Below, piece after piece: positions 33,221 through 44,271 of a DNA stretch of 64,000 bases (position 1 is the stretch's first letter; the number at the start of each line of letters is the position of its first letter). The translations under genes and the position numbers were made by a program. The notes beneath the pieces are model-generated. The model had not been told where the DNA came from. It did no database searches and saw only the letters and a list, made by a program, of their open reading frames with translations. This stretch comes from an uncultured Planctomycetaceae bacterium (GTDB lineage Bacteria > Planctomycetota > Planctomycetia > Planctomycetales > Planctomycetaceae): assembly GCA_963813715.1 (NCBI GenBank), contig CAWFAK010000005.1, forward strand, positions 960,001-1,024,000, read 5' to 3'.

Positions 33221-34513
33221 CTAAACAGCGCGGATAATCGCGGCAGCGCTTTGACCCATCGCCGTGCGATTGACGGTCAGGGCCGTCTTCTTTCGCAGAT
33301 CGAGCGGCTCGCGGTGGACGACCCGCAGCCGGAACCGCGGATCGGGAGTCTCGTAATTGAGCGTCATCGGCAGCGAGCCGTGCTCGAGCGCCAGCAGGCT
33401 GCCCGCCAGCTCGACCGCGCCCGAACCCGCGTCGAAGTGGCCGAAATAGCTCTTGAGTGCCGTCACCGGAATGGATTCGGCCTCGTCGTCGAAGGCCCGG
33501 CGGAAGGCGCAGGCCTCGACCAGATCGTCCCGCTGCGTGCTTTTTCCGTGGGCATTAATGTGCCCCAAATCCGAGGGCCGCAGGGACGCCTGCCGCAGGC
33601 TGGAGCGAATGGCGCGGACCAGGCCCGTGCCCCCGTTGCCGTTCGAGGAGCCTGTGCCGTCGCAGCCGGCCGCGACGCCCAGCACCTCGGCGTAGATTCG
33701 GGCTCCGCGACGTGCGGCATGGCTGTACCGCTCGACGACGAACGCCGCGCCCCCTTCGCCCACGATCGTGCCGTCACGGTCGAAGTCGAAGGGGCGGCAC
33801 GCACGGAGCGGATCGTCGACCCGCCGTGACAGTCCGTCAAACAGGCTGAGCTTGGCAATGTCGACCGGATGCACGTTGGAGCTGGAGGCGCCGACGATCA
33901 TGCAGTCGGCCGCGCCGCGGTCGATCACGTTGACCGCTTCGGCCAGCGCCAAGAGCGCCGACGACTCGCGGCACGTGATCGTGTTGTTGGGCCCCCGCGC
34001 ATCGAATTCGATCGAAACGTGGCAGGCGGGCATGTTGGGCAACTGCCGCAGAAACCAGAGCGGACAGATTTCGCCCATCGCTTGTTCGTTGAATCGCTCG
34101 TAGGCGAAGGCGCCCTTTTCGTCGCTCGAGGCGGTCACCGCGTCGGTGAGTTCCTGCGGCGTTGTGGAGATGCGGCCAGCCCCGAAGGAGACGCCCAATC
34201 GGTCCGGATCGACCGAGCCCCGCACCAGGGCGGCGTCGTCCATCGCCAAGGTCGAGGCGGCGACGCCCAGCTGGATGTCGCGGGACATGACCTTGATCAA
34301 CTTTTTATTGGCAATGTAGTCTTCGGGCGCGAAATCGTGGATTTGGGCGGCTAGGCGCGTGGGCAGATGGTCGCTGCGAAAAGCGCGCAGATAGCCGATT
34401 CCGGATCGGCCCTGCATCAAGCTTTTCCAGAACGCATCTTTGCCGATGCCGATCGGGGAAACGACCCCGACACCGGTGATGACAATCCTGGTTGGAATGT
34501 CCCCAGCCTTCAT
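33221..34513 (-). CDS. Beta-ketoacyl-ACP synthase (FabF-like) paralogue with Glu at the catalytic Cys position
   Basis: Motifs IVITGVGVVSPIG, LPNMPA, GPNNTITCRESS, RPFDFDRDG..GEGG, NAHGKST and KSYFGH. Confidence 0.85.
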   Translation of the reverse strand: MKAGDIPTRIVITGVGVVSPIGIGKDAFWKSLMQGRSGIGYLRAFRSDHLPTRLAAQIHDFAPEDYIANKKLIKVMSRDIQLGVAASTLAMDDAALVRGSVDPDRLGVSFGAGRISTTPQELTDAVTASSDEKGAFAYERFNEQAMGEICPLWFLRQLPNMPACHVSIEFDARGPNNTITCRESSALLALAEAVNVIDRGAADCMIVGASSSNVHPVDIAKLSLFDGLSRRVDDPLRACRPFDFDRDGTIVGEGGAAFVVERYSHAARRGARIYAEVLGVAAGCDGTGSSNGNGGTGLVRAIRSSLRQASLRPSDLGHINAHGKSTQRDDLVEACAFRRAFDDEAESIPVTALKSYFGHFDAGSGAVELAGSLLALEHGSLPMTLNYETPDPRFRLRVVHREPLDLRKKTALTVNRTAMGQSAAAIIRAV

Positions 34514-35337
34514 GAGACGACCCAGCGGCCGAGGCACGGCTCCGGTCGCAGCACCGCGATATCGGCTTTTCAACGTCCCGCCGGTGTCCCGCCGTCGAGA
34601 GGTCTCAAAGCTCGATCAACTTTGCCGTAAACCACTTCGCCCGAATTCTGCGGCCCGCCCGTGCGTGCCGCTGCCGATTTCTCTGCCGACCCTATTTCTT
34701 TATCGGCAATCTCCCCAGGGAGGGGAGACGGGTGATCGAGCAAACGGGGGACTGTTTTCGTCAAACAGCCGAAGCAGCCAACCTGCGCAGTCAGTCGACG
34801 CTCATGCCACTCGCAGCGCTTGACCCGCGTGAGTTTTCCGCGTGAATTTACAAGGGCGATTTTTCTAGCCGTCGCCAACCGCAGGATAAGTCGTAACTAC
34901 TGATCCCCATATGTGTTTGCTAGCCTGACCCATGTCAAATTAGACCGCAGATCGCGGGGCGCGTCAAGAACAATCCGCTACGGGCGGCACAAGGGGGCAA
35001 GTCGCCGGGTTCGGTAGAATCGGCCATGTCGACGCGTGGTGCGGCATCTCCAACGTCGCAGGACGGGTGTCGCGGCCAGTTCCCCGACGCGGGCGACACC
35101 GAAGTGGGGCTGAGGCCGATTGTGCCGACGGAATCGATTCTTCTGCGGCACCCTACACGCGACTGGTCATTTCGCGTCGCAGGGAGGGGGAGCGATGGTT
35201 CGTCGAGAGGGCGTTCAGCAGAGAAGATTGCGGCCGCGGCTAAAGAAAAACAGCCGGGAGAATTCCGGCGGTGGGGCAGGAACCACAAGAATTCAGCGTC
35301 CGGCTGCCATTCCCATTTTACTGCGGAAGGGGCGGGC

Positions 35338-35368
35338 TTGCAAACTTCGGGCAAGGCTGGATTAGAAT
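35338..35368 (+). promoter_or_regulatory. Possible sigma70-type promoter upstream of tRNA-Leu
   Basis: TTGCAA-N19-TAGAAT. Spacing is suboptimal. Confidence 0.3.
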
Positions 35369-35480
35369 GCGCGGGCTGCATCTGGAACTCCTTAACCAAG
35401 ATGCGACGGCGGCTGCTCCGGATGGCAGTGCCGCCTCGACGAAGCGACGACGAGACAAATCCGACATCAGCCGTGCTCAC

Positions 35481-35562
35481 GCGAGAGTGGCGGAATTGGC
35501 AGACGCGCCAGACTTAGGATTTGGTGCCGCAAGGCGTGGGGGTTCGAGTCCCCCCTCTCGCA
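35481..35562 (+). tRNA. tRNA-Leu (anticodon TAG), CCA not encoded
   Basis: GCGAGAG/CTCTCGC acceptor stem, D-loop GGAATTGGCAGAC, anticodon arm CCAGA-CTTAGGA-TTTGG, long variable arm and GGTTCGAGTCC T-loop. Confidence 0.97.
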
Positions 35563-35820
35563 TTCCCCCGCAGCTGCCCCCTGTGACGTAGAATTCGCGC
35601 GCCGTCACGCGTTCTCCAAGACCTGTTCAGACGTCTCTGTCTCGGCCGCGCACAACTCGCAGAGTCCGGGGACGCACTATCTTCACTCGAGACGCATGAT
35701 TTTTATCCGCTGTGGACGTGCTTCGCCACGCGGCTTCCAAACGTGCGTTTTGCAAGTCCCTCTTGCGTTTTTTGGACCGGTCAACTACAAGACCGAAGCC
35801 CCGAGGTAGTTCTTGGCACC

Positions 35821-36075
35821 GACATGGATGTCAGAGTCAAGACCCATCCGAAGCGCCGACCGGTGGCACGAATTCGGGCCGCCCCGGCAGGCGGAGTAAC
35901 CGCCCCTCACGCGCGAGGAGCCTCAAGGCAACGTGCCGGCATGGATGCCGATAACCGGCCGCTTTCTGCACCGGAGCGCTTTCGTGGCGAACCCGGCAAA
36001 GTGGCCCGGATCGCGTCGCACGACCCAGTGGCCGTCGCGATCTGACAAGGATGTAAAGTGCCGGAAAGGAGGCCT
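35821..36075 (+). promoter_or_regulatory. Putative multi-site CsrA-binding leader (or CsrB-like sRNA)
   Basis: Hairpins GACA-TGGA-TGTC (35821-35832), CGGCA-TGGA-TGCCG (35937-35950) and ACA-AGGA-TGT (36045-36054), plus RBS AAGGAGG (36066-36072). Confidence 0.6.
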
Positions 36076-36080
36076 CGATC

Positions 36081-36866
36081 GTGTTAGTTCTCACCCGCAG
36101 AGAAAACGAGAAAATCTTATTGCCCGACGTGGGCGTGACCGTCGAATTGATGTCGGTCACTGGTAACCGCGCCCGCTTGGGCATCAGCGCTCCCGATAAC
36201 ATTCGCATTCTTCGCGAAGAAGTCGCCGTCAACCAGGCTGTTCTCAAGCAGGCCACGGTTCGCGGTTCGATGTCGCGAGAATTCGTTCATGCCTTTCGCA
36301 ACCGGCTCAACGCGGCCATCCTGGCGGCCGAGACCGTGCGGATGCAAATCGAAGCCGAACGCCTCGACGATACGTCAAGCACGCTCGATCGCATCGTGAC
36401 CGAGCTCCGGGCGATGGCGTCGATGGTCGAAGGACCGCAGCCGGTCGCCGCGCCGCCGCTTGTCGCGTCAGGAGTGGGCGAGCACCGGCCTTGGAAGGCG
36501 TTGGTGGTCGAGGACGACGCCAACGAGAGCTTGCTGCTGGCCGGAATCCTGCGGATGACGGGGTACGAGGTCGACGTCGCCGGTGACGGTGCGGACGCTC
36601 TCGACTATCTCCATTCGCACGCGCGGCCCGACGTCGTGCTGCTCGACATGAAGCTGCCGAAGCTCGACGGGGCCACCACGCTCGGTCGCATCCGCCGGGA
36701 TCCCAATCTCGAGGGGATGAAGGTCTACGCCGTCAGCGCGACGCCGCCCAAGCGGTTTGGCGTGAAGACGGGACCGGGCGGCATCGACCGTTGGTTCTGC
36801 AAGCCTCTTGATCCGCGGGAGCTGGTGCGCCAACTCGATAGCGAGCTGAGCGCCCTCGATCGCTGA
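36081..36866 (+). CDS. CsrA-domain / HisKA-like / receiver-domain fusion protein
   Basis: N-terminus MLVLTRRENEKI...RARLGISAP..IRILREEV (CsrA). Middle HAFRNRL (H-box-like). C-terminus VVEDD...LLDMKLP...AVSA...CKP (intact REC). Confidence 0.88.
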   Translation: MLVLTRRENEKILLPDVGVTVELMSVTGNRARLGISAPDNIRILREEVAVNQAVLKQATVRGSMSREFVHAFRNRLNAAILAAETVRMQIEAERLDDTSSTLDRIVTELRAMASMVEGPQPVAAPPLVASGVGEHRPWKALVVEDDANESLLLAGILRMTGYEVDVAGDGADALDYLHSHARPDVVLLDMKLPKLDGATTLGRIRRDPNLEGMKVYAVSATPPKRFGVKTGPGGIDRWFCKPLDPRELVRQLDSELSALDR

Positions 36867-36886
36867 CGCCCAGGCGTCAGCGGTTT
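36861..36886 (+). terminator. Hairpin overlapping the stop of the CsrA-REC gene (weak terminator or stability element)
   Basis: CGCTGACGC-ccag-GCGTCAGCG followed by GTTT. Confidence 0.4.
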
Positions 36887-37222
36887 GCCGAATTCGGCCG
36901 TCGTCATCGATGGCTGCGTTGCAGTAAGCAGACGGCGCGGATGCAGGATCCGCGCCGCTTCTGAGATCGCACAACTTGCCGGTCCGGCGCCCCCACGCCC
37001 GTGCTGGGCTCGTTCAGCACGGATCGGCGGCCGCTTCAGCTGGGAAAGACACCCACCGTGCAGCCAAAACAATCGCCGCGCTCGCTGCCCCCTTCCGGTC
37101 GCGAGGCCGCCCCGTCACGCAATCTGGCTTTCGACTTCCAGCGGTCGGAGTTTGACACGGCCGCTCAGCCCTACGAAACATTTCAGACCACCACCGACGA
37201 GCCGCTCCCCCGACATTGGAAC

Positions 37223-38717
37223 ATGAACGGCATCAACATCGGCGAAAGTCTCCGTCGCGCCCTCGAGGTGTGCGAGGCGGCCTTCGACGACATCGTCGAT
37301 AAAAGCGCCGACGGTGTGGTCGTCGTGAACCCCGTCGGCACGATCTGTTTTGCCAACGCGGCCGCCGAATCGATGCTGGGCCGCTCGACGGGCGAACTTC
37401 TGGGCGAACCGTTCGGAATGCCGGTGGGGGCCGGCGAAACATTCGAGATGAAGCTGCCCTCGACCGATCAGGGCTGCCACTTCGCCGAAATCCGCGTCGT
37501 CGCCACCCATTGGCAGGGCTCGCCCGCCTTGCTGGCCACCCTGCGCGACGTCACGCAGCGCAATCGGGCCCTGCGCCGTCGCGACGAATTCCTGGCCATG
37601 CTGTCGCACGAACTGCGCAATCCGCTGGCGGCCATCTCCAGCGCGGCGAGCGTGCTGGCCCGCCCCGACCTCGACGGCGACGCCTTTGCCAGAGCCCGCG
37701 GCGTCATCGAACGGCAGTGCGCAAATGACCCGCCTGCTGGCCGATCTGCTCGACGTCTCCCGCGCGACCCGCGCGAAGATCGAGCTGCGCAAGAAATGCC
37801 TCGACCTGGTCGACGTGATCATCGAAGCCGTCGACGCGGTGCGCGGCGAAGCCGAGGCCGTCGGCCAGACCGTGTCGCTGGTTGCCAGTGTCGACATGAT
37901 TCCAGTCGACGGCGACGCGGTGCGCTTGCACCAGGTGTTTGTGAACCTACTTTCCAATGCGTCCAAGTTTTCCGGTGCCGGAAGCCCAATCCGGGTGATG
38001 GTGGGGATTGAGGAGGATCAGGCGGTCGTCAAAGTCCGCGACCAGGGAATCGGGATGACGCCCGAGGTGTTGGAGGCCGTGTTCCAGCCCTTCGTCCAGC
38101 TCGACTCGTCGCTGGATCGGCCCGGCGAGGGCCTGGGTCTCGGCCTGGCGATTGCCGATTGCTTGATCAAGCTGCACGGCGGCGCGGTGCGGGCGTCGAG
38201 CGAAGGCCTGGGAAAGGGGAGCGAGTTCTGCGTCCGCCTGCCCCTGTCTCGCTCGCGTCCCGAGTCGGCGCCCACGTTAGCCGACGCCGCGACGGAGACG
38301 GCGCTACGCGTGGTGATCGTCGAGGACAACGCCGACGTGGGCGAGATGCTCAAAACGTTGCTGGAGTGCGTGGGGCATCAGGTGGAGATTGCCGCCGACG
38401 GCCTGACCGGCGCGGAACTGATCGAACGCATGCATCCGGACGTGGCCCTAATCGACATCGGCCTGCCCGCGCTCAACGGTTACCAGCTCGCGCAGCGAAT
38501 TCGCTCCGACGACGCCCATCGGGACGTCTACTTGGCGGCGCTCACCGGCTACGGACAAGCGGCCGACCAGGAGAAGGCCCTGTCTTCGGGCTTCGATACT
38601 CACATCGCCAAGCCCGTCAGCGTCGAGCACCTGCGCAGACTGCTTGCTTCGCGACAACGAGTCCGCCTCAACGTGGCGGCAGCCGAAGAAGCGCAAGCCG
38701 AGCTACCCGCGCGTTGA
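37223..38717 (+). CDS. PAS-HisKA-HATPase-REC hybrid histidine kinase; frameshift ~37720; start uncertain
   Basis: PAS (DGVVVV...FANAAAE), SHELRNPL, NLLSNASKF, DQGIGM, GLGLGL, then receiver IVEDN...LIDIGLP...AKP. No TM segment seen. Confidence 0.9.
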
Positions 38718-38939
38718 CTTGGCGGCTCACCTGTCTAGTTTCGGTCCGAATTGGAACCGGACCGGCGTCGCGCGCCACTAAGCGTGGGCCGCGCCCCCAC
38801 GTTTCCGCGGAACCCCCTGTCGAATTCGTCTTTCCCAATTTGACGGACTCTGCTATGTGTTCCCGGCCGAATCTCCCGTTTCTGGGCCAACCGCACGGGG
38901 TGGGGGAGCGGTATCGAGATCGGTCGGGAAAGGATTCCC

Positions 38940-41709
38940 ATGAAAGGCCTGGCTTGGAAGATTGCGCTCGCGACCGCCGTGCTGGCGGTCGGGTTCCTGG
39001 TCATCCTGCAAGCGCAGCGAGGCATGACCCAGGCCATGCTGCAGAAGACGGCCGACGCCCAAGCCGCCAATCAACCTGCCGCGGCACCGGCAGGCGATGC
39101 CGCCGTCGCCAGTACTGCCGTTGCCAGTGACGCTGCTTCCAAGTCGGATCCGTTCGGCGACGCTGCGTCGGCGAGCGATCCTTCGTCTGTGCATCATGGT
39201 GAGGTCGGCAGCGGAGACCCGAAGAACAACGCTCCGAAGGTTGTGTCACCGGTGACGGCTCCGGAAGTTGTCGACAAGGACTCGGGCAAGTCGCCGGCAA
39301 AACCAACCGCGTCGCCCGATGCGAAAGAGTCCACGGCCGCCAACGATCCCTTCGCCGACGGCGGCGACGTGAAGCACAGCGCTCCAGCGACAGAGACGAA
39401 GAGCGCCGCGCCCGCGGGGTCCGAGGTCAAACAGGCGAGTGCATCAACCGAAGCGCTCGGGAAGAACTCCGAGCCGACCGATAATTCATCCCCGCAGGCG
39501 ATGCCGGCCCCCGAACTCCCCGCGCCCAAGCTGCCGGGAGCCGACGGACCTGGGCTCGGCGATTCGAAGCCGGAGGCGAAAGCCAAAGACGCGAGTGCGC
39601 CGCCAAAACAATCGGAGCCCCCCGCCGGACCGCAGATCGATCTGCCCGCGGGAAAGAAGGATGGCGACCAAAAGGACGCCGCTCCAAAGGACGCGGACGA
39701 AAAAGCGGCCGATGGCAAAGCGAGCGGAGGCCCGCAGCTGCCAGCCGGTCCGTCACTCGATCTGCCGCCGACGACCAATGCTGCTCCGGAAAACCCGTCG
39801 CCGCCGACTCCAAAATCGGCGACGAGCAATCCGCCTTTCCCTGGACCGGCCGACGGCGCCGCAACGCCTCCGGCACAATCCGAGCCTACCGACAAATCGC
39901 CCGTGAAATCGGCGGCGGACGCCGCTCCTCCCTCGTCGTCGGGAGGTCCCAAGCCGTTCCCCGAGGAGGGGCCCAAAGAGTCGCCGCTGGCTGTTCCCAA
40001 GCCGCCGGAATCAGTGCCGCCTTCGACGAACTCGCCGGCCCCGGCGATTCCCTCTCCGGCGATTCCGTCTCCCGCGTGCCCCGACAGGCGGCGCGACGAA
40101 CGGCACGCCGGCGAGCCCGATGGTGCTCGACCTGACACCGGGCAACGCTCCTTCCCCAAATGCTCCTGCAACGGGCGCTCCGCCGACCTTGCCCGAAACG
40201 AAGTCGGCCGATACCAGTAACTCGTCGACTCCGGCCCCGACACAGCGGCCGGCGGCCGACTTGCGTTCGGAGGGGGCGGCGGACTTTCAAGGGGACGGCA
40301 CGGTGGGCGAATCGGCTGCACTGGGACCGCAGCGACCCCAGTTGAATATCGAGAAGATCGCGCCGCAGAACGCTCTGCTCGGCCAGCCGCTCATTTATGC
40401 GATCGTGGTCCGAAATGTGGGCCAAAGCGCGGCCCGCGACGTCGTCGTCGAAGATCGCATCCCCAAGGGAACGAAGCTCTCCGGGACGATCCCCCGCGCG
40501 GAACTCACGGGCAAAAAGTTGATCTGGCGGCTCGGCACTTTGGCTGCGGGCGAACAGCGCAAGATCTCCATCCGCGTGATTCCGCAGGAAGCGGGGGAGA
40601 TCGGCAGCGTGGCCACGGTGAATTTCGTGGCCGAGGCGGCCGCCGAAACCGTCGTTACCGCGCCGCGATTGGAATTCAAAATCACCGCGCCCTCGGCAGC
40701 CCGGCTGGGCGAGTCGGTGCCTTTCCGCTTCGAGGTGAGGAATGTCGGCACCGGCGAGGCGCGCGGCGTCGTCATTCGCGACCTGATTCCGCAGGGCCTC
40801 GCGCATACCGCGGGCAACGACCTCGAATACGAAGTGGGACGCCTGTTGCCCGGTCGCTCGAAGCAATTGACGCTCGACCTGAAGGCGGGCAAGGTCGGCA
40901 CGGCCGTCAACCGGGCCGTGGTGCTCGCCGAAGGTGGACTGACTGCCGAGGCGAAGGCCACCATCGAGATCAGCGGCTCCAAAATCGCACTGACACGAAC
41001 TGGTCCGCAGCGGCGCTACCTGGGACGCCAGGCCGTGTTTACCAACACGCTCGTCAACGAGTCGAGTTTTGCGGTCGACGGCGTGGTACTGGTGGAATCG
41101 GTGCCGGCCGGGATGGACTTTGCCGGCGCGTCGCACGGCGGGCAATACAACGACGGCAGCCGCACGATCGCCTGGCGGATCGACCCGCTGTCGCCGGGCG
41201 AAACGCGAGTCGTGAAATCGCGGCTCGTCGCACGAAACCTGGGGAGCCAAACGAGCACCGTTCGCCTCACCGTTCCCAATGGGGAGCCGGTGGAGGCAAC
41301 TTCGCAGACCGCGGTCGAAGGATTTGCTGCCGTGGGGCTCGACGTGACCGGCGTCGACGGCCCGGTCGACCTGGGAGAGAAAGTCACCCTGCACGTCAAC
41401 GCGCGGAACAAAGGGACGGTCCCCGTCACCAACCTCATGTTGACCGTCGAACTGCCCGAGCAGATGGAGGTCGTGTCGGCCCGCGGTCCGGGCAAGCTGC
41501 TGCAGGAACCGGGGCGGCTCAAGTTCGGCCCCATGCCGACGCTCGAGGGACGCACGGCAGCCGCCTGTGAAATCGTGCTGGCGGCGCGTAAACGGGGCGA
41601 TAGTCGGCTGAGGCTGAGCATTCAAGCCGACCAGATCGACAAGCCGCTGGCCCGCGAGGAATCGATCCTGATTCTCTCAGAATCGCCCGAGCCGACCGCC
41701 GCTCGCTGA
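38940..41709 (+). CDS. Membrane-anchored Pro/Ala-rich protein with four DUF11 (OmcB-like) repeats; frameshift ~40080
   Basis: N-terminal hydrophobic anchor and low-complexity linker, then PQLNIEKIAP...YAIVVRNVG...VVVEDRIP and three further related repeats. Confidence 0.85.
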
Positions 41710-41713
41710 ACGC

Positions 41714-44271
41714 TCAGCGCGAAGAAACCGGCACGCCGTCCTTCGTATCGGCGATGATCCGCGCGCCCTGTTCGACGGGCGCCACCGGCCGGTTCAGCAG
41801 CCGCTGCGATTCGTGCAGGACGAAACTGACGTCCATGAACGGCTCAAAGCTCACGTCGAACCAGCGGGCATAGCCGTCCTTGTCGATCAAGAACATCCCG
41901 TGCATGGGGATGTTCTCGAAGTTGTCGTAGGCGCGGAATGACTGGAACGCCGAGTATTTGTCGTCGGCCAGGACCAGGAACGGATAGGGGCCGTTCTTGT
42001 ACTTGTCCAAGAACTGCTTGACGTGGGCTTGGTTGTCCACGCTGACGGCGACGAGGGTCAGCCCCTCTTTCTTCAGTTCGTCGGCCTTCTTGGCAAAAGC
42101 CTCGAGCTGCTTCACGCAGTGCGGGCATTGGCCGCCCAGGAAGAACACCATCAAGACCGGTTTGCCGCGGAACTCGGCGAAGGTGTGCTCGTGTCCCTGG
42201 GCGTCTTGAAGTTTCCAATCGGGAGCCAGCCAAGGCCGCCAAACGAGCGGCCCCAGCGACTTGAGCGGGCGGCGTTGCTTGAGCGATTTGTTGAGGCTCT
42301 GCGGCAACCGCCAATCGGCCGGCAGGTCGAAGTCCTTCGCGATCGGCTGCAAGCGCGCCAGAGGGGGCGAATCGAGATCGGCCGTGCCGGCCAGCTCGCG
42401 GAGCTTGTCGAACTCTTTGCGGGCTTCGTCCTTCTGGCCGATGCGATAGAGGATTTCCACAAGATTGGCCTGCGGCTTCACCTGATACTCGCGGTTGTTG
42501 GCGAACTCGCGGGCGCACCACTCGGCCGCGTCGGGGTCGCCGGCCTCCAGCATCTGGCGGGACATGAAGGCGAAATCGACGTTCACCGAATCGTAGGGCA
42601 GCTCGAGCAGCGCCAAGTGCCGCTGAAACAGCCAGACTCCGCCGCCGATCGCTAAGGGCACGGTGAGCACGGCCACGACGATCGACCGGCGCTTGATCGT
42701 CAAGAATGCGGCCAGCTCGAGGACGAACAGCCCCCCCAAGCACATCACGAGCGCCCGGCGGCTCAGGAAAAAGCCGCTGACGATGCGTCGATACGATTCC
42801 AGTTCCTTGCGGGAGCGCCGCCAGTTCCGCCATGGGCCGAATATACTTCGACTGGACCGCCGCCATCGCCTTGTTGCGTTTCGACGTGTCGCCGATTTCG
42901 TCGACCGCTGTTTGCGCGGCCGCCTCCTCGGATTCGCTGAGTCGGCGGATTTCGGCAAGCTCTTTGTCACCGTCGGCGATCTTGCCGGTCGAGTAGTAGG
43001 CCACGCCCAGGTTGAGGTGCACCTTTCCCTGCTCGCCGAGCAACGACGTTTCCTCGATGTAACCCGACTTGCACGCGTCGATCAGATCCTCCCAGTACTC
43101 GAATTGACGCAGAGTTTGCAACAGACGCTCTCGGCCGTAGTAGGCGCTCGTGCCGTGCGTTTCGACGGTCTTCTTCTGCTCCTTCGGCGAGTCTTCGTCG
43201 TCGGCGCTATCGTCGTCGTCCGGGGGCTCGATGAGGTTGAACTGCGGATGCCGCGGCAGATCGATCATGTGCATCGCCGTCCGCCGCGCGTCCTGCGCCC
43301 GGCCCATGTATAGCAGCGTACGCACGAGCCATTCGTTGTTGTGGGCGTAGAAGACCGACTGGTCGGGAACCACATGGTCATGCATCATGCGGGCATGCTC
43401 GGTGCGGATACACGCCTCGAGCTGCCAGGCGGCCTGCGGGTACATGTGCAGAGTGAAGTAAATGTGCGTGGGCATGTGCCACATGTGGCCGATCGACGGG
43501 GCCGAATCGCCGCAGTGATCGGCCGAGTCGAGTGCGCGGCTCTCCATCGACGCGAGATTGCAGATGTGGATCACCGCGTGGTTGATCGGGTGATAGGGAT
43601 TCACCTTCAGGATGGCGTTGGCCAGTTCGACGGCATCGTGCACTTCGGTGTTGCTGGCCTGGCCCGTTTCGATGCGGAACCACATCCGCCAGACTTCGCG
43701 GGCCTTTGCCTCCTGGTCGTCCGGGTACTTGGCCATGATGGCCCGATAGCCGCCCTGGGAGGTCAACGCATCGATATACATCTGTTCGCGATCGCTCAGG
43801 CCGGCCTTGTTCTTGGCGGCCAATTCGGCGAACTCGCGGGCGCGGGACGGTCGGTAATGGTTGGCGATCGAGGCGCCCCACCACGCCATGCCGGCGATCG
43901 AGTGATCCAGGTGCCTCCGCCGCGCGGAAGGAGCGCTCGGCCTCGGCGTACCAGAAGCCATGCAGCTGGCCCACGCCCTGCTCGAAGAATTTTTGGGCCT
44001 TTTCGACCTTATGGGTGATGGGAAAGTGCACATTTCCCGTACCCCCCATCAGATAAGCACTTTGGCGCAGACCCGCGTCGAAAATCTCTCCGTGCCGGGA
44101 GTGGCCCGGCAGAATGCGCTCCTCCTGCTGCGGTGCGGTGGGCTCGCCGGGTATCTGCACCCGGGCGCTGGGTGTCTGAGTAAGGGCACTGCCGGGGGTC
44201 TGCGCAAAGGCACCGTCGGCCAGCAAGGCGACGAATCCGACGAGTAGCAGGCATCGGGCAACGGCCGGCAT
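41714..44271 (-). CDS. Secreted TPR-like protein with C-terminal redoxin (AhpC/TSA) domain; 2 frameshifts (~43920, ~42820)
   Basis: Signal peptide, FFEQGVGQLHGFWYAEAERSF and HMWHMPTHI. C-terminus APDWKLQD...FFLGGQCPHCVKQL. Confidence 0.8.

Follow-up and report, generated by a model that had tools for sequence, protein, structure and literature searches.

A CsrA protein fused to a histidine-bearing helical hairpin and a receiver domain in planctomycetes: a candidate RNA regulator under phosphorylation control

Can a two-component system act directly on a CsrA-type RNA-binding protein? Canonical CsrA is controlled by small RNA (sRNA) sponges or by the binding of proteins of the FliW/CesT kind. 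The question is raised by two neighbouring genes in a stretch of 64,000 nucleotides (the window) from an uncultured Planctomycetaceae bacterium (GenBank assembly GCA_963813715.1, contig CAWFAK010000005.1, positions 960,001 to 1,024,000 of the forward strand). The upstream gene encodes a CsrA domain, a helical segment and a receiver domain in one protein, and the downstream gene a hybrid histidine kinase. An original prediction, made from the letters alone, had proposed that a phosphorelay is wired onto the RNA-binding protein, with a His in the middle segment acting either as a relay site or as part of a dimerisation helix. We followed this up with profile searches, structure prediction and a comparison of related loci. 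The fusion is real and conserved and, judging by its sequence, probably functional. We consider it likely that it is a phosphorylation-controlled CsrA regulator which is partnered with the neighbouring hybrid kinase. The fusion gene and its parts are located as follows (aa, amino acids; DHp, the dimerisation and histidine phosphotransfer domain of histidine kinases).

36081..36866, + strand: CsrA-DHp-like-receiver fusion gene, 261 aa, GTG start; no insertion or deletion against the near-identical contigs of four public runs
36081..36227, + strand: CsrA RNA-binding domain, residues 1-49 (Pfam PF02599, 55.4 bits)
36276..36431, + strand: DHp-like helical hairpin (helices 66-91 and 95-117) with an H-box-like HxxRNxL (AlphaFold2 and hhalign)
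36288-36290, + strand: His70 codon, inside HAFRNRL
36495..36860, + strand: receiver (REC) domain, residues 139-260 (Pfam PF00072, 64.8 bits)
36645-36647, + strand: Asp189 codon of the receiver

The single open reading frame (ORF) of 261 aa thus holds the three parts that had been read from the letters. The CsrA assignment is clear: the Pfam profile covers residues 1-49 and scores far above its cut-off of 27 bits (E = 6e-15), and the first 50 residues align with the solved CsrA chains 2bti and 1y00 (E = 9e-8). This alignment lays MLVLTRR on the beta1 strand and ILREEV on the REE region, which places the previously noticed LVLTR and ILREE motifs on their structural counterparts. For the receiver we observed a Response_reg match over residues 141-252 (cut-off 30.2 bits, E = 9.8e-18) and found the residues E144/D145, D189, S219 and K241, including the Asp, Ser and Lys that had been described as intact. 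The hairpin with its HAFRNRL lies between the two domains. Pfam gave no HATPase_c match in the fusion, and a low-confidence linker of ~20 residues joins the hairpin to the receiver. Since it has no catalytic (CA) domain the fusion is not a histidine kinase, and on sequence grounds it is not a histidine phosphotransfer (Hpt) protein either, the Pfam scan returning no match to PF01627 at E up to 0.1. With its 261 aa and two further domains it also fails the size criterion of stand-alone members of the CsrA family (~60-85 aa).

In order to identify the middle segment we aligned residues 56-136 of the family with the HisKA region of 45 neighbouring kinases. The hhalign comparison gave a probability of 96.3% (E = 1.5e-9) and laid VHAFRNRL of the fusion on SHELRNPL of the kinases, with His70 on the phospho-acceptor His. 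The H-box of the fusion reads H70-x-x-R73-N74-x-L76, in a context like HExxR[NT]PL. HisKA was also the only recurrent Pfam family besides CsrA and the receiver, with weak matches in 7 of 37 aligned members (best E = 0.0083). By these sequence comparisons the middle segment is a DHp homologue without a catalytic domain.

The AlphaFold2 model, computed from an alignment of 37 rows, has a mean predicted local distance difference test (pLDDT) score of 81.5 and contains the CsrA strands, a helix at residues 46-59 and a confident receiver. The two helices of the hairpin, 66-91 and 95-117, reached a pLDDT of about 86 and the receiver values above 90; the linkers 51-62 and 121-133 stayed below 50. With the whole model as query, Foldseek returned only receivers as top matches (CheY, RR468 and PhoB, E about 1e-9), which is uninformative on the hairpin, and the 60 matches listed from a profile search of PDB sequences were likewise all receivers. 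When two copies were modelled as a complex the homodimer scored 0.63 compared to 0.00 for the best control, so the dimer that the original prediction had called for is indeed predicted. A score of this kind was reached by 20 of 30 solved pairs and by 1 of 23 single chains. Agreement between the runs covers at least 96% of the contacts, and the partner pLDDT is at least 77. Most contacts come from CsrA residues 1-49, where strand 2-7 pairs with 30-35 of the other chain, and the confident interface further includes heptad-spaced hairpin positions within 63-117 (69, 72, 73, 76, 79, 80, 83 ... 116, 117). His70 and all receiver residues are outside the list of confident interface residues, which marks unlisted residues merely as uncertain. 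For His70 this fits an exposed His on the predicted four-helix bundle. The two roles offered for the middle His, relay site or dimerisation helix, are both compatible with the DHp homology and with the predicted bundle, and the relay role stays a suggestion of the sequence.

Is the fusion a peculiarity of this genome? A word-seeded search of 5.8 billion proteins gave 929 matches at E up to 1e-3. Both PF00072 and PF02599 were found in 118 of the 120 best database relatives, which puts the fusion far beyond chance; most of these proteins are 250-300 aa long, and PF02599 matched all 37 aligned relatives. Records of the best 120 come from Planctomycetaceae, Pirellulales or Planctomycetota and name the proteins 'response regulator' or 'carbon storage regulator CsrA', in line with the suspicion that similar planctomycete fusions are already annotated. 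We also ran residues 1-135 (CsrA plus hairpin) exhaustively with phmmer against 1.84 billion cluster representatives and obtained 2663 matches at E up to 1e-3; 155 clusters (50% identity) reached 1e-10 or better, and 5 of them 1e-30 or better. Among the 150 matches listed, most span about residues 1-110 to 1-130.

In contigs representing one genome per species, relatives are encoded in at least 439 of 601 candidate stretches. The analyses of species loci below use the best 80 of these at least 439 loci, in nearly all of which the match runs from residue 1 to about 250-260; in L085 it ends at 205. Record titles of the 80 loci name Planctomycetaceae, Pirellulaceae, Thermoguttaceae, Gemmataceae, Isosphaera and Lacipirellulaceae, and they include the cultured Bythopirellula polymerisocia Pla144 and Stieleria marina K23_9. 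A full-length profile search found the fusion in at least 9 of 301 Planctomycetota genomes: the window's own, at least 7 of the 16 others that belong to its family, and 1 of 1 from a second family. An N-terminal profile gave full-length matches in the same nine genomes. The tallies are lower bounds, with 8-13 first-look candidates scored per genome, and speak for presence only; scoring of every candidate recovered the fusion in 5 of 5 known holders.

We then studied residue conservation across 76 full-length sequences, namely the window and 75 loci, with identities from about 32% to 99%. Five loci (L009, L019, L071, L081 and L085) were dropped from this alignment on account of a partial best tblastn segment. 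In the CsrA part L2, R6 and R45 are kept in 76 of 76 sequences and E47 in 75. The receiver is equally constant: D145, D189 and K241 are kept in all 76 sequences and S/T219 in 75. For the hairpin we observed H70 in 70 of 76, R73 in 64, N74 in 68 and L76 in 74.

The fusion can occur in several paralogous copies per genome. In Stieleria marina K23_9 we counted four matches (L051, L104, L105 and L106), and of the three that were read out two have the H-box His and one does not. The genome of L020 carries a second copy (L107) without the His and with a degenerate receiver in which the Lys is replaced. Shorter matches of 110-190 aa do not lead us to propose a receiver-less form of the family. P0129, P0133 and P0215 end where the receiver begins and are thus cut or frameshifted; the short proteins P0171, P0182 and P0199 have no H-box. 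The 'CsrA plus extension' genes L101 and L103 have unrelated tails.

The second element of the proposed system is the kinase gene downstream of the fusion, which comprises the following features.

37223..38717, + strand: hybrid histidine kinase PAS-HisKA-HATPase_c-REC, cytoplasmic; probable start ATG 37223 (alternative GTG 37001)
37283..37414, + strand: PAS domain (Pfam PAS, E = 1.3e-7)
37580..37718, + strand: HisKA (DHp) domain up to a frame break (Pfam, 38.3 bits in the truncated frame)
37607-37609, + strand: phospho-His codon (SHELRNPL)
37911..38249, + strand: HATPase_c domain (Pfam, 91.1 bits)
38310..38642, + strand: C-terminal receiver (Pfam Response_reg, 72.5 bits), Asp codon 38454-38456

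To compare the surroundings of the fusion across species we used the intact kinase of locus L009 as a blastp query. L009 stems from a metagenome-assembled genome and aligns with the window at 95.4% DNA identity. The synteny expected by the original prediction was borne out in more than half of the loci: in 45 of the 80 species loci the 6-kb flanks of the fusion include a hybrid kinase that scores at least 200 bits, and 35 of these 45 are within 400 bp. Of the downstream kinases 14 share the strand of the fusion and 20 are convergent; of the upstream ones 8 share its strand and 3 are divergent. As the adjacency is kept across four arrangements, it points to selection on the linkage rather than to an inherited operon order. 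The window's own genome contains only four other kinases of at least 200 bits (215-253 bits) in 7.49 Mb, and the chance of finding one in a given 12-kb stretch is therefore estimated at less than 1%.

In a quick IQ-TREE tree of the kinase cores (44 neighbours and the 4 own-genome paralogues; L063 was dropped as truncated) 39 of the 44 neighbour kinases are set apart from all four paralogues by one branch (Shimodaira-Hasegawa-like approximate likelihood ratio test, SH-aLRT, 99). The kinases of L038, L048, L050, L054 and L079 group with the paralogues. Within the 39, nine short PAS kinases including that of L009 form a group (support 84), and their sister clade (support 96) holds 24 kinases of more than 1200 aa and five shorter ORFs, which are probably truncated. 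Three of these long kinases, L020:6873-11084, L032:1450-5895 and L072:1703-5815, are about 1350-1480 aa long and have the domain order CheB_methylest-CheR-PAS_10-PAS-HisKA-HATPase-REC; neighbours of this kind accompany the fusion in many lineages. Among the 35 loci without a kinase of this type, L051 (PAS x3-HK-REC-REC) and L058 (ETR1_N-PAS-HK-REC-REC) adjoin other hybrid kinases, a lone receiver adjoins the fusion in L011, L045 and L078, and a REC-HD protein does so in L044; the remaining scanned loci of this set have unrelated neighbour genes.

The domain order PAS-HisKA-HATPase-REC was predicted correctly. In line with the suggested cytoplasmic location, no transmembrane segment is predicted in the kinase, with a highest 19-residue Kyte-Doolittle mean of 1.47. 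What did not hold is the single open frame. The window splits the kinase into two ORFs in different frames, 37001-38011 with PAS and the first half of HisKA and 37686-38717 with HATPase_c and the receiver. Compared to L009, 2 nt are missing from the window immediately behind 37718, within a GC-repeat. In L009 the kinase is intact, a single ORF of 572 aa or 499 aa from the probable start, with PAS at 22-65, HisKA at 121-184 (55.9 bits, profile positions 2-64), HATPase_c at 232-344 and the receiver at 365-475, counted from the probable Met. We compared the window with Logan contigs of public runs, where X1 and X2 are soil DNA, X10 is a rhizosphere RNA library and X14 has no coverage at 37718. 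The missing 'GC' is present behind 37718 in the ~99%-identical contigs of all three covering runs (X1, X2 and X10). Against the same three runs the window also lacks 2 nt after 38761, and the overlapping window ORFs 38940-40220 and 40120-41709 correspond to a single ORF of 906 aa in L009. The two bases found in 3 of 3 runs and the further indels at 38761 and in 38940-41709 point to indel errors in the window assembly. The kinase is most likely intact in the organism, and the 2-nt break is probably an assembly error. Other window genes may likewise be split by small assembly indels. The L009 copy of the fusion carries a 1-nt insertion (L009:6100-6110), so that in this relative the frame is broken in the fusion rather than in the kinase. 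Seven differences common to all or most of the compared runs cluster in 36958-37213, which fits a non-coding spacer and makes ATG 37223 rather than GTG 37001 the probable start. Two RNA libraries, X10 and X14, yield contigs with 99% identity over the fusion and a large part of the kinase. As libraries of this type may contain DNA, the coverage is not proof of expression.

Neither the kinase nor the four neighbour kinases scanned contain a recognisable Hpt domain. There was no Pfam match at E up to 0.1 in the pieces of the window kinase and none at E up to 1e-5 in the four scanned neighbour kinases (L009, L020, L032 and L072), all four of which have kept the C-terminal receiver.

What might the fusion bind? 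GGA is the recognition core of CsrA, and we found three such motifs in the leader of the fusion gene itself.

36045..36072, + strand: leader (5') of the fusion gene, in which GGA occurs three times: ACAAGGATGT at 36045-36054 and GGAAAGGAGG at 36063-36072

We take ACAAGGATGT to resemble the high-affinity CsrA site derived by SELEX (systematic evolution of ligands by exponential enrichment); GGAAAGGAGG overlies the ribosome-binding region, 9-18 nt before the GTG. We compared 77 family leaders to 459 control leaders of other genes in the same loci, bearing in mind that the control start codons were crudely called and that the family leaders are interrelated. GGA occurs in positions -20..-1 of all 77 family leaders and of 153 of the 459 controls, AAGGA in the same interval of 63 versus 11. 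GGAAAGGA was found in -30..-1 of 36 family leaders and of 1 control, and at least two GGA motifs lie in -100..-25 of 41 family and 144 control leaders. Folding of 36000-36095 revealed no unusual stability (z 0.14). We regard autoregulation through the own leader as a lead only.

From these results we propose the following mechanism. The fusion would be a dimeric RNA-binding response regulator whose CsrA domains form the usual interlocked dimer. A flexible linker would tether them to a kinase-derived DHp hairpin, which in the dimer would make a four-helix bundle with the conserved His70 exposed, and a second flexible linker would lead to a standard receiver with Asp189. As its partner we propose the soluble PAS hybrid kinase encoded next to it, a protein with a receiver but no Hpt. 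A kinase that ends in a receiver and has no Hpt needs a second His for phosphate to leave it. Phosphate would then most likely flow from the kinase His to the kinase receiver Asp, on to His70 of the fusion and finally to its Asp189, with the CA-less DHp playing the part of Spo0B or ChpT. The phosphorylation state of the receiver would decide whether the CsrA dimer binds GGA-containing mRNA leaders, probably its own included, and would in this way control translation. Because both linkers are predicted to be flexible we suspect docking or occlusion rather than rigid helical transmission, which is pure inference.

The strength of the proposal differs between its parts. The domain identities, the conservation, the homology between hairpin and DHp, the gene linkage and the predicted dimer were obtained here. 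Every phosphotransfer step, the RNA binding and the gating by the receiver are inferred from them. Concerning the specific route through His70 the sequence leaves us close to undecided, with the balance tipping slightly to the negative side. Our most far-reaching version would see in the two genes a complete His-Asp-His-Asp relay, the second His being supplied by a CA-less DHp inside the terminal regulator and the output being a CsrA dimer whose translational repression of GGA-bearing mRNAs, its own among them, is phospho-switched; CheB-CheR-PAS kinases would drive the system in most lineages. This version is put forward tentatively and may well turn out to be wrong.

How else could the observations be explained? 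Phosphate could pass directly in two steps from the kinase His to Asp189, with the kinase receiver serving as a sink or internal regulator, the hairpin as a dimerisation or docking platform or, via Asn74, as a phosphatase in cis, and His70 as a kept relic. Hybrid kinases with a regulatory receiver are known, VirA being an example. Such a scheme agrees well with a receiver site kept in 76 of 76 sequences of which 6 have lost the His, with a hairpin that forms part of the predicted dimer interface, and with N74, kept in 68 of 76, at what we take to be the T/N position of the HisKA phosphatase motif. It has more difficulty with the retention of His70 in 70 of 76 sequences over about 32-99% identity, which is hard to understand for a purely structural, solvent-facing residue outside the list of confident interface residues, and with the C-terminal receiver retained in all four scanned neighbour kinases. 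We regard this direct transfer as unlikely, yet as deserving to be taken seriously. If instead a free Hpt protein carried phosphate from the kinase receiver to Asp189, His70 would have no role in phosphotransfer. Ten Hpt matches in the genome, some in small frames of 76-242 aa, could supply such a protein. None of them lies in the window; the nearest one listed is on the window's contig at a distance of about 65 kb from the fusion, and we saw no Hpt gene among the flanking genes of the scanned loci; the conserved H-box of the fusion would also go unexplained. A separate Hpt step therefore seems improbable to us.

The CsrA domain might also not be the output at all, in a protein which mainly handles phosphotransfer or acts as a phosphate sink and uses the CsrA fold as a dimerisation module or RNA tether. 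It is true that most contacts of the predicted dimer are made by the CsrA domain and that the flexible linkers show no allosteric path. A mere dimerisation module would have no need of the residues which we take to contact RNA in solved CsrA/RsmE complexes, and these are kept almost without exception (R6, R45 and L2 in 76 of 76, E47 in 75), which makes this explanation highly improbable. Finally, the module could be decaying in this strain, with a true kinase pseudogene and an orphaned fusion. The split frame with its 2 missing nt is what one would see in that case. All three covering runs hold the two bases at 99% identity, the further indels (at 38761 and in the counterpart of the 906-aa L009 ORF) point to the assembly, and the domains in both halves of the kinase score fully. 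We give decay hardly any credence.

Returning to a regulator that is switched by phosphorylation through His70, a number of our results weigh against it or against parts of it. Of the three Pfam profiles named in the original prediction, CsrA (PF02599) and Response_reg (PF00072) scored above their cut-offs and HisKA (PF00512) did not: on residues 67-117 it reached 13.8 bits where 26.9 are required (E = 0.06). His70 is absent from 6 of 76 relatives with an intact receiver (L028, L066, L068, L073, L077 and L087) and is thus dispensable to the family, and the position following it shows no conserved acid (A in 27, D in 16 and E in 14 of 76). Members without the His lack an adjacent kinase in 5 of 6 cases compared to 29 of 69 members with it, a pattern that weakly favours the His70 step but is not significant (Fisher p 0.086). 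No kinase of the type described lies within 6 kb of the fusion in 35 of 80 loci, a few of which are on short contigs. The kinase frame is broken in the assembly, and the kinase tree is a quick one with a midpoint root only. A conventional Hpt could carry the phosphate, given 10 matches in the own genome that exceed the Pfam cut-off for Hpt, several of them in small frames. Both linkers being of low confidence, no structural path from the receiver to CsrA is visible, and solved CsrA and DHp dimers that the model has memorised may lie behind the homodimer score. The proximal GGA of the leader can be explained by a strong Shine-Dalgarno sequence alone, and GGA is found at the same place in six inspected stand-alone csrA genes of the own genome. 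The idea of a phosphorelay acting on the RNA-binding protein keeps the support of the conserved receiver residues, the linkage in 45 of 80 loci and the DHp homology; the step through His70 is weakened by the members without this His and by the free Hpt candidates.

Further elements lie around the two genes. A spacer of 356 nt separates the end of the fusion from the probable start of the kinase.

36862..36881, + strand: perfect 9-bp inverted repeat GCTGACGCC / GGCGTCAGC, overlapping the TGA stop of the fusion and followed by a weak T run
35481-35562: tRNA-Leu (anticodon TAG), 518 nt upstream of the fusion
35751-35767: terminator-like hairpin and T run, between the tRNA-Leu and the fusion
33221-34573, - strand, and 41714-42970, - strand: flanking genes, a beta-ketoacyl synthase and a membrane-anchored AhpC/TSA-type redoxin
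38940-40220: Pro/Ala-rich ORF with an N-terminal hydrophobic stretch
40120-41709: ORF with DUF11 repeats

The inverted repeat might act between the two genes as a terminator or an attenuator; it is not among the calls of the terminator scan. A promoter scan found none, and terminator-like sites were no better than in shuffled sequences. In 34000-40000 the Rfam scan gave the tRNA-Leu and, apart from it, a single sRNA match below threshold (23.2 bits, threshold 37). In the other scanned loci neither the beta-ketoacyl synthase nor the redoxin was seen beside the fusion.

How does the fusion compare to known systems? With CsrA, RsmA and RsmE (PF02599; structures 1y00, 2bti and 2jpp) it shares the profile and chain match over 49 residues, the beta1 and REE residues, the predicted interlocked dimer and the GGA motifs in its leader. 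The canonical proteins stand alone with about 60-85 aa, whereas here the domain is fused to a DHp-like hairpin and a receiver. Both forms occur in the own genome (loci L001-L008): Pfam gives 12 CsrA matches, 11 of them over the cut-off, the six stand-alone genes that were read out encode 66-85 aa, and the fusion is the only long CsrA. We found no FliW in this genome, which is 82.6% complete.

Receivers joined to an RNA-binding domain are otherwise found in the ANTAR-type response regulators (AmiR, NasT, EutV and PdtaR). In the fusion the order is reversed, with the output N-terminal and the receiver C-terminal, and a His-bearing DHp-like hairpin lies between them. ANTAR proteins act by antitermination, whereas CsrA would be expected to act on translation and mRNA stability. 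The hairpin itself may be compared to Spo0B of Bacillus and ChpT of Caulobacter. Those two proteins have a dimerising hairpin derived from a kinase, a four-helix bundle, an exposed His and no autophosphorylation, and the predicted fold, the His and the missing CA domain of the fusion would fit this type. We saw no sequence or fold match to Spo0B or ChpT themselves, no search having been aimed at one. Spo0B and ChpT are separate proteins that have kept a degenerate CA-like domain and act between receivers in His-Asp-His-Asp relays. The fusion, in contrast, has no CA domain, and its hairpin is placed inside the terminal regulator between output and receiver.

The partner kinase has the HisKA-HATPase_c-REC order of ArcB, BarA/GacS, RcsC-RcsD and LuxN-LuxU, and a second His step is therefore to be expected. 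Unlike in those systems there is no Hpt in or next to the kinase, and the CsrA protein carries the receiver. BarA and GacS reach CsrA indirectly, via UvrY/GacA and sRNAs. The long kinases beside the fusion in L020, L032 and L072 are CheB-CheR-PAS hybrid kinases, presumably the 'CheB/CheR fusion protein' of KEGG; the window-type kinase differs from them in lacking CheB and CheR and in having a single PAS domain. A literature search on CheB-CheR fusions gave only unrelated papers.

The architecture as such has been catalogued since 2006: the census of Galperin (2006), as cited in PMC2222644, has a response-regulator class 'RNA-binding output: ANTAR and CsrA', and a 2025 review (PMC12471899) lists CsrA among the outputs and cites for it only the structure of E. 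coli CsrA. Our full-text literature searches, which left most subscription papers outside their reach, found no functional study of a receiver-fused CsrA, in agreement with the original prediction, which knew of none. As far as these searches reach, the DHp-type His and the conserved partnership with Hpt-less hybrid kinases are undescribed.

CsrA/Rsm proteins are major post-transcriptional regulators, and their known controls are indirect, through sRNA sponges under BarA/UvrY or GacS/GacA or through antagonists such as FliW. A CsrA that bears a receiver would show two-component signalling acting on translation without a transcription step and, if true, would represent a third mode of CsrA control beside sRNA sponges and protein antagonists of the FliW/CesT type. 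A DHp-type His inside a response regulator would add a new phosphorelay layout. The family is present in the cultured strains Stieleria marina K23_9 and Bythopirellula polymerisocia Pla144, so these ideas are testable at the bench. Planctomycete genomes carry many csrA paralogues.

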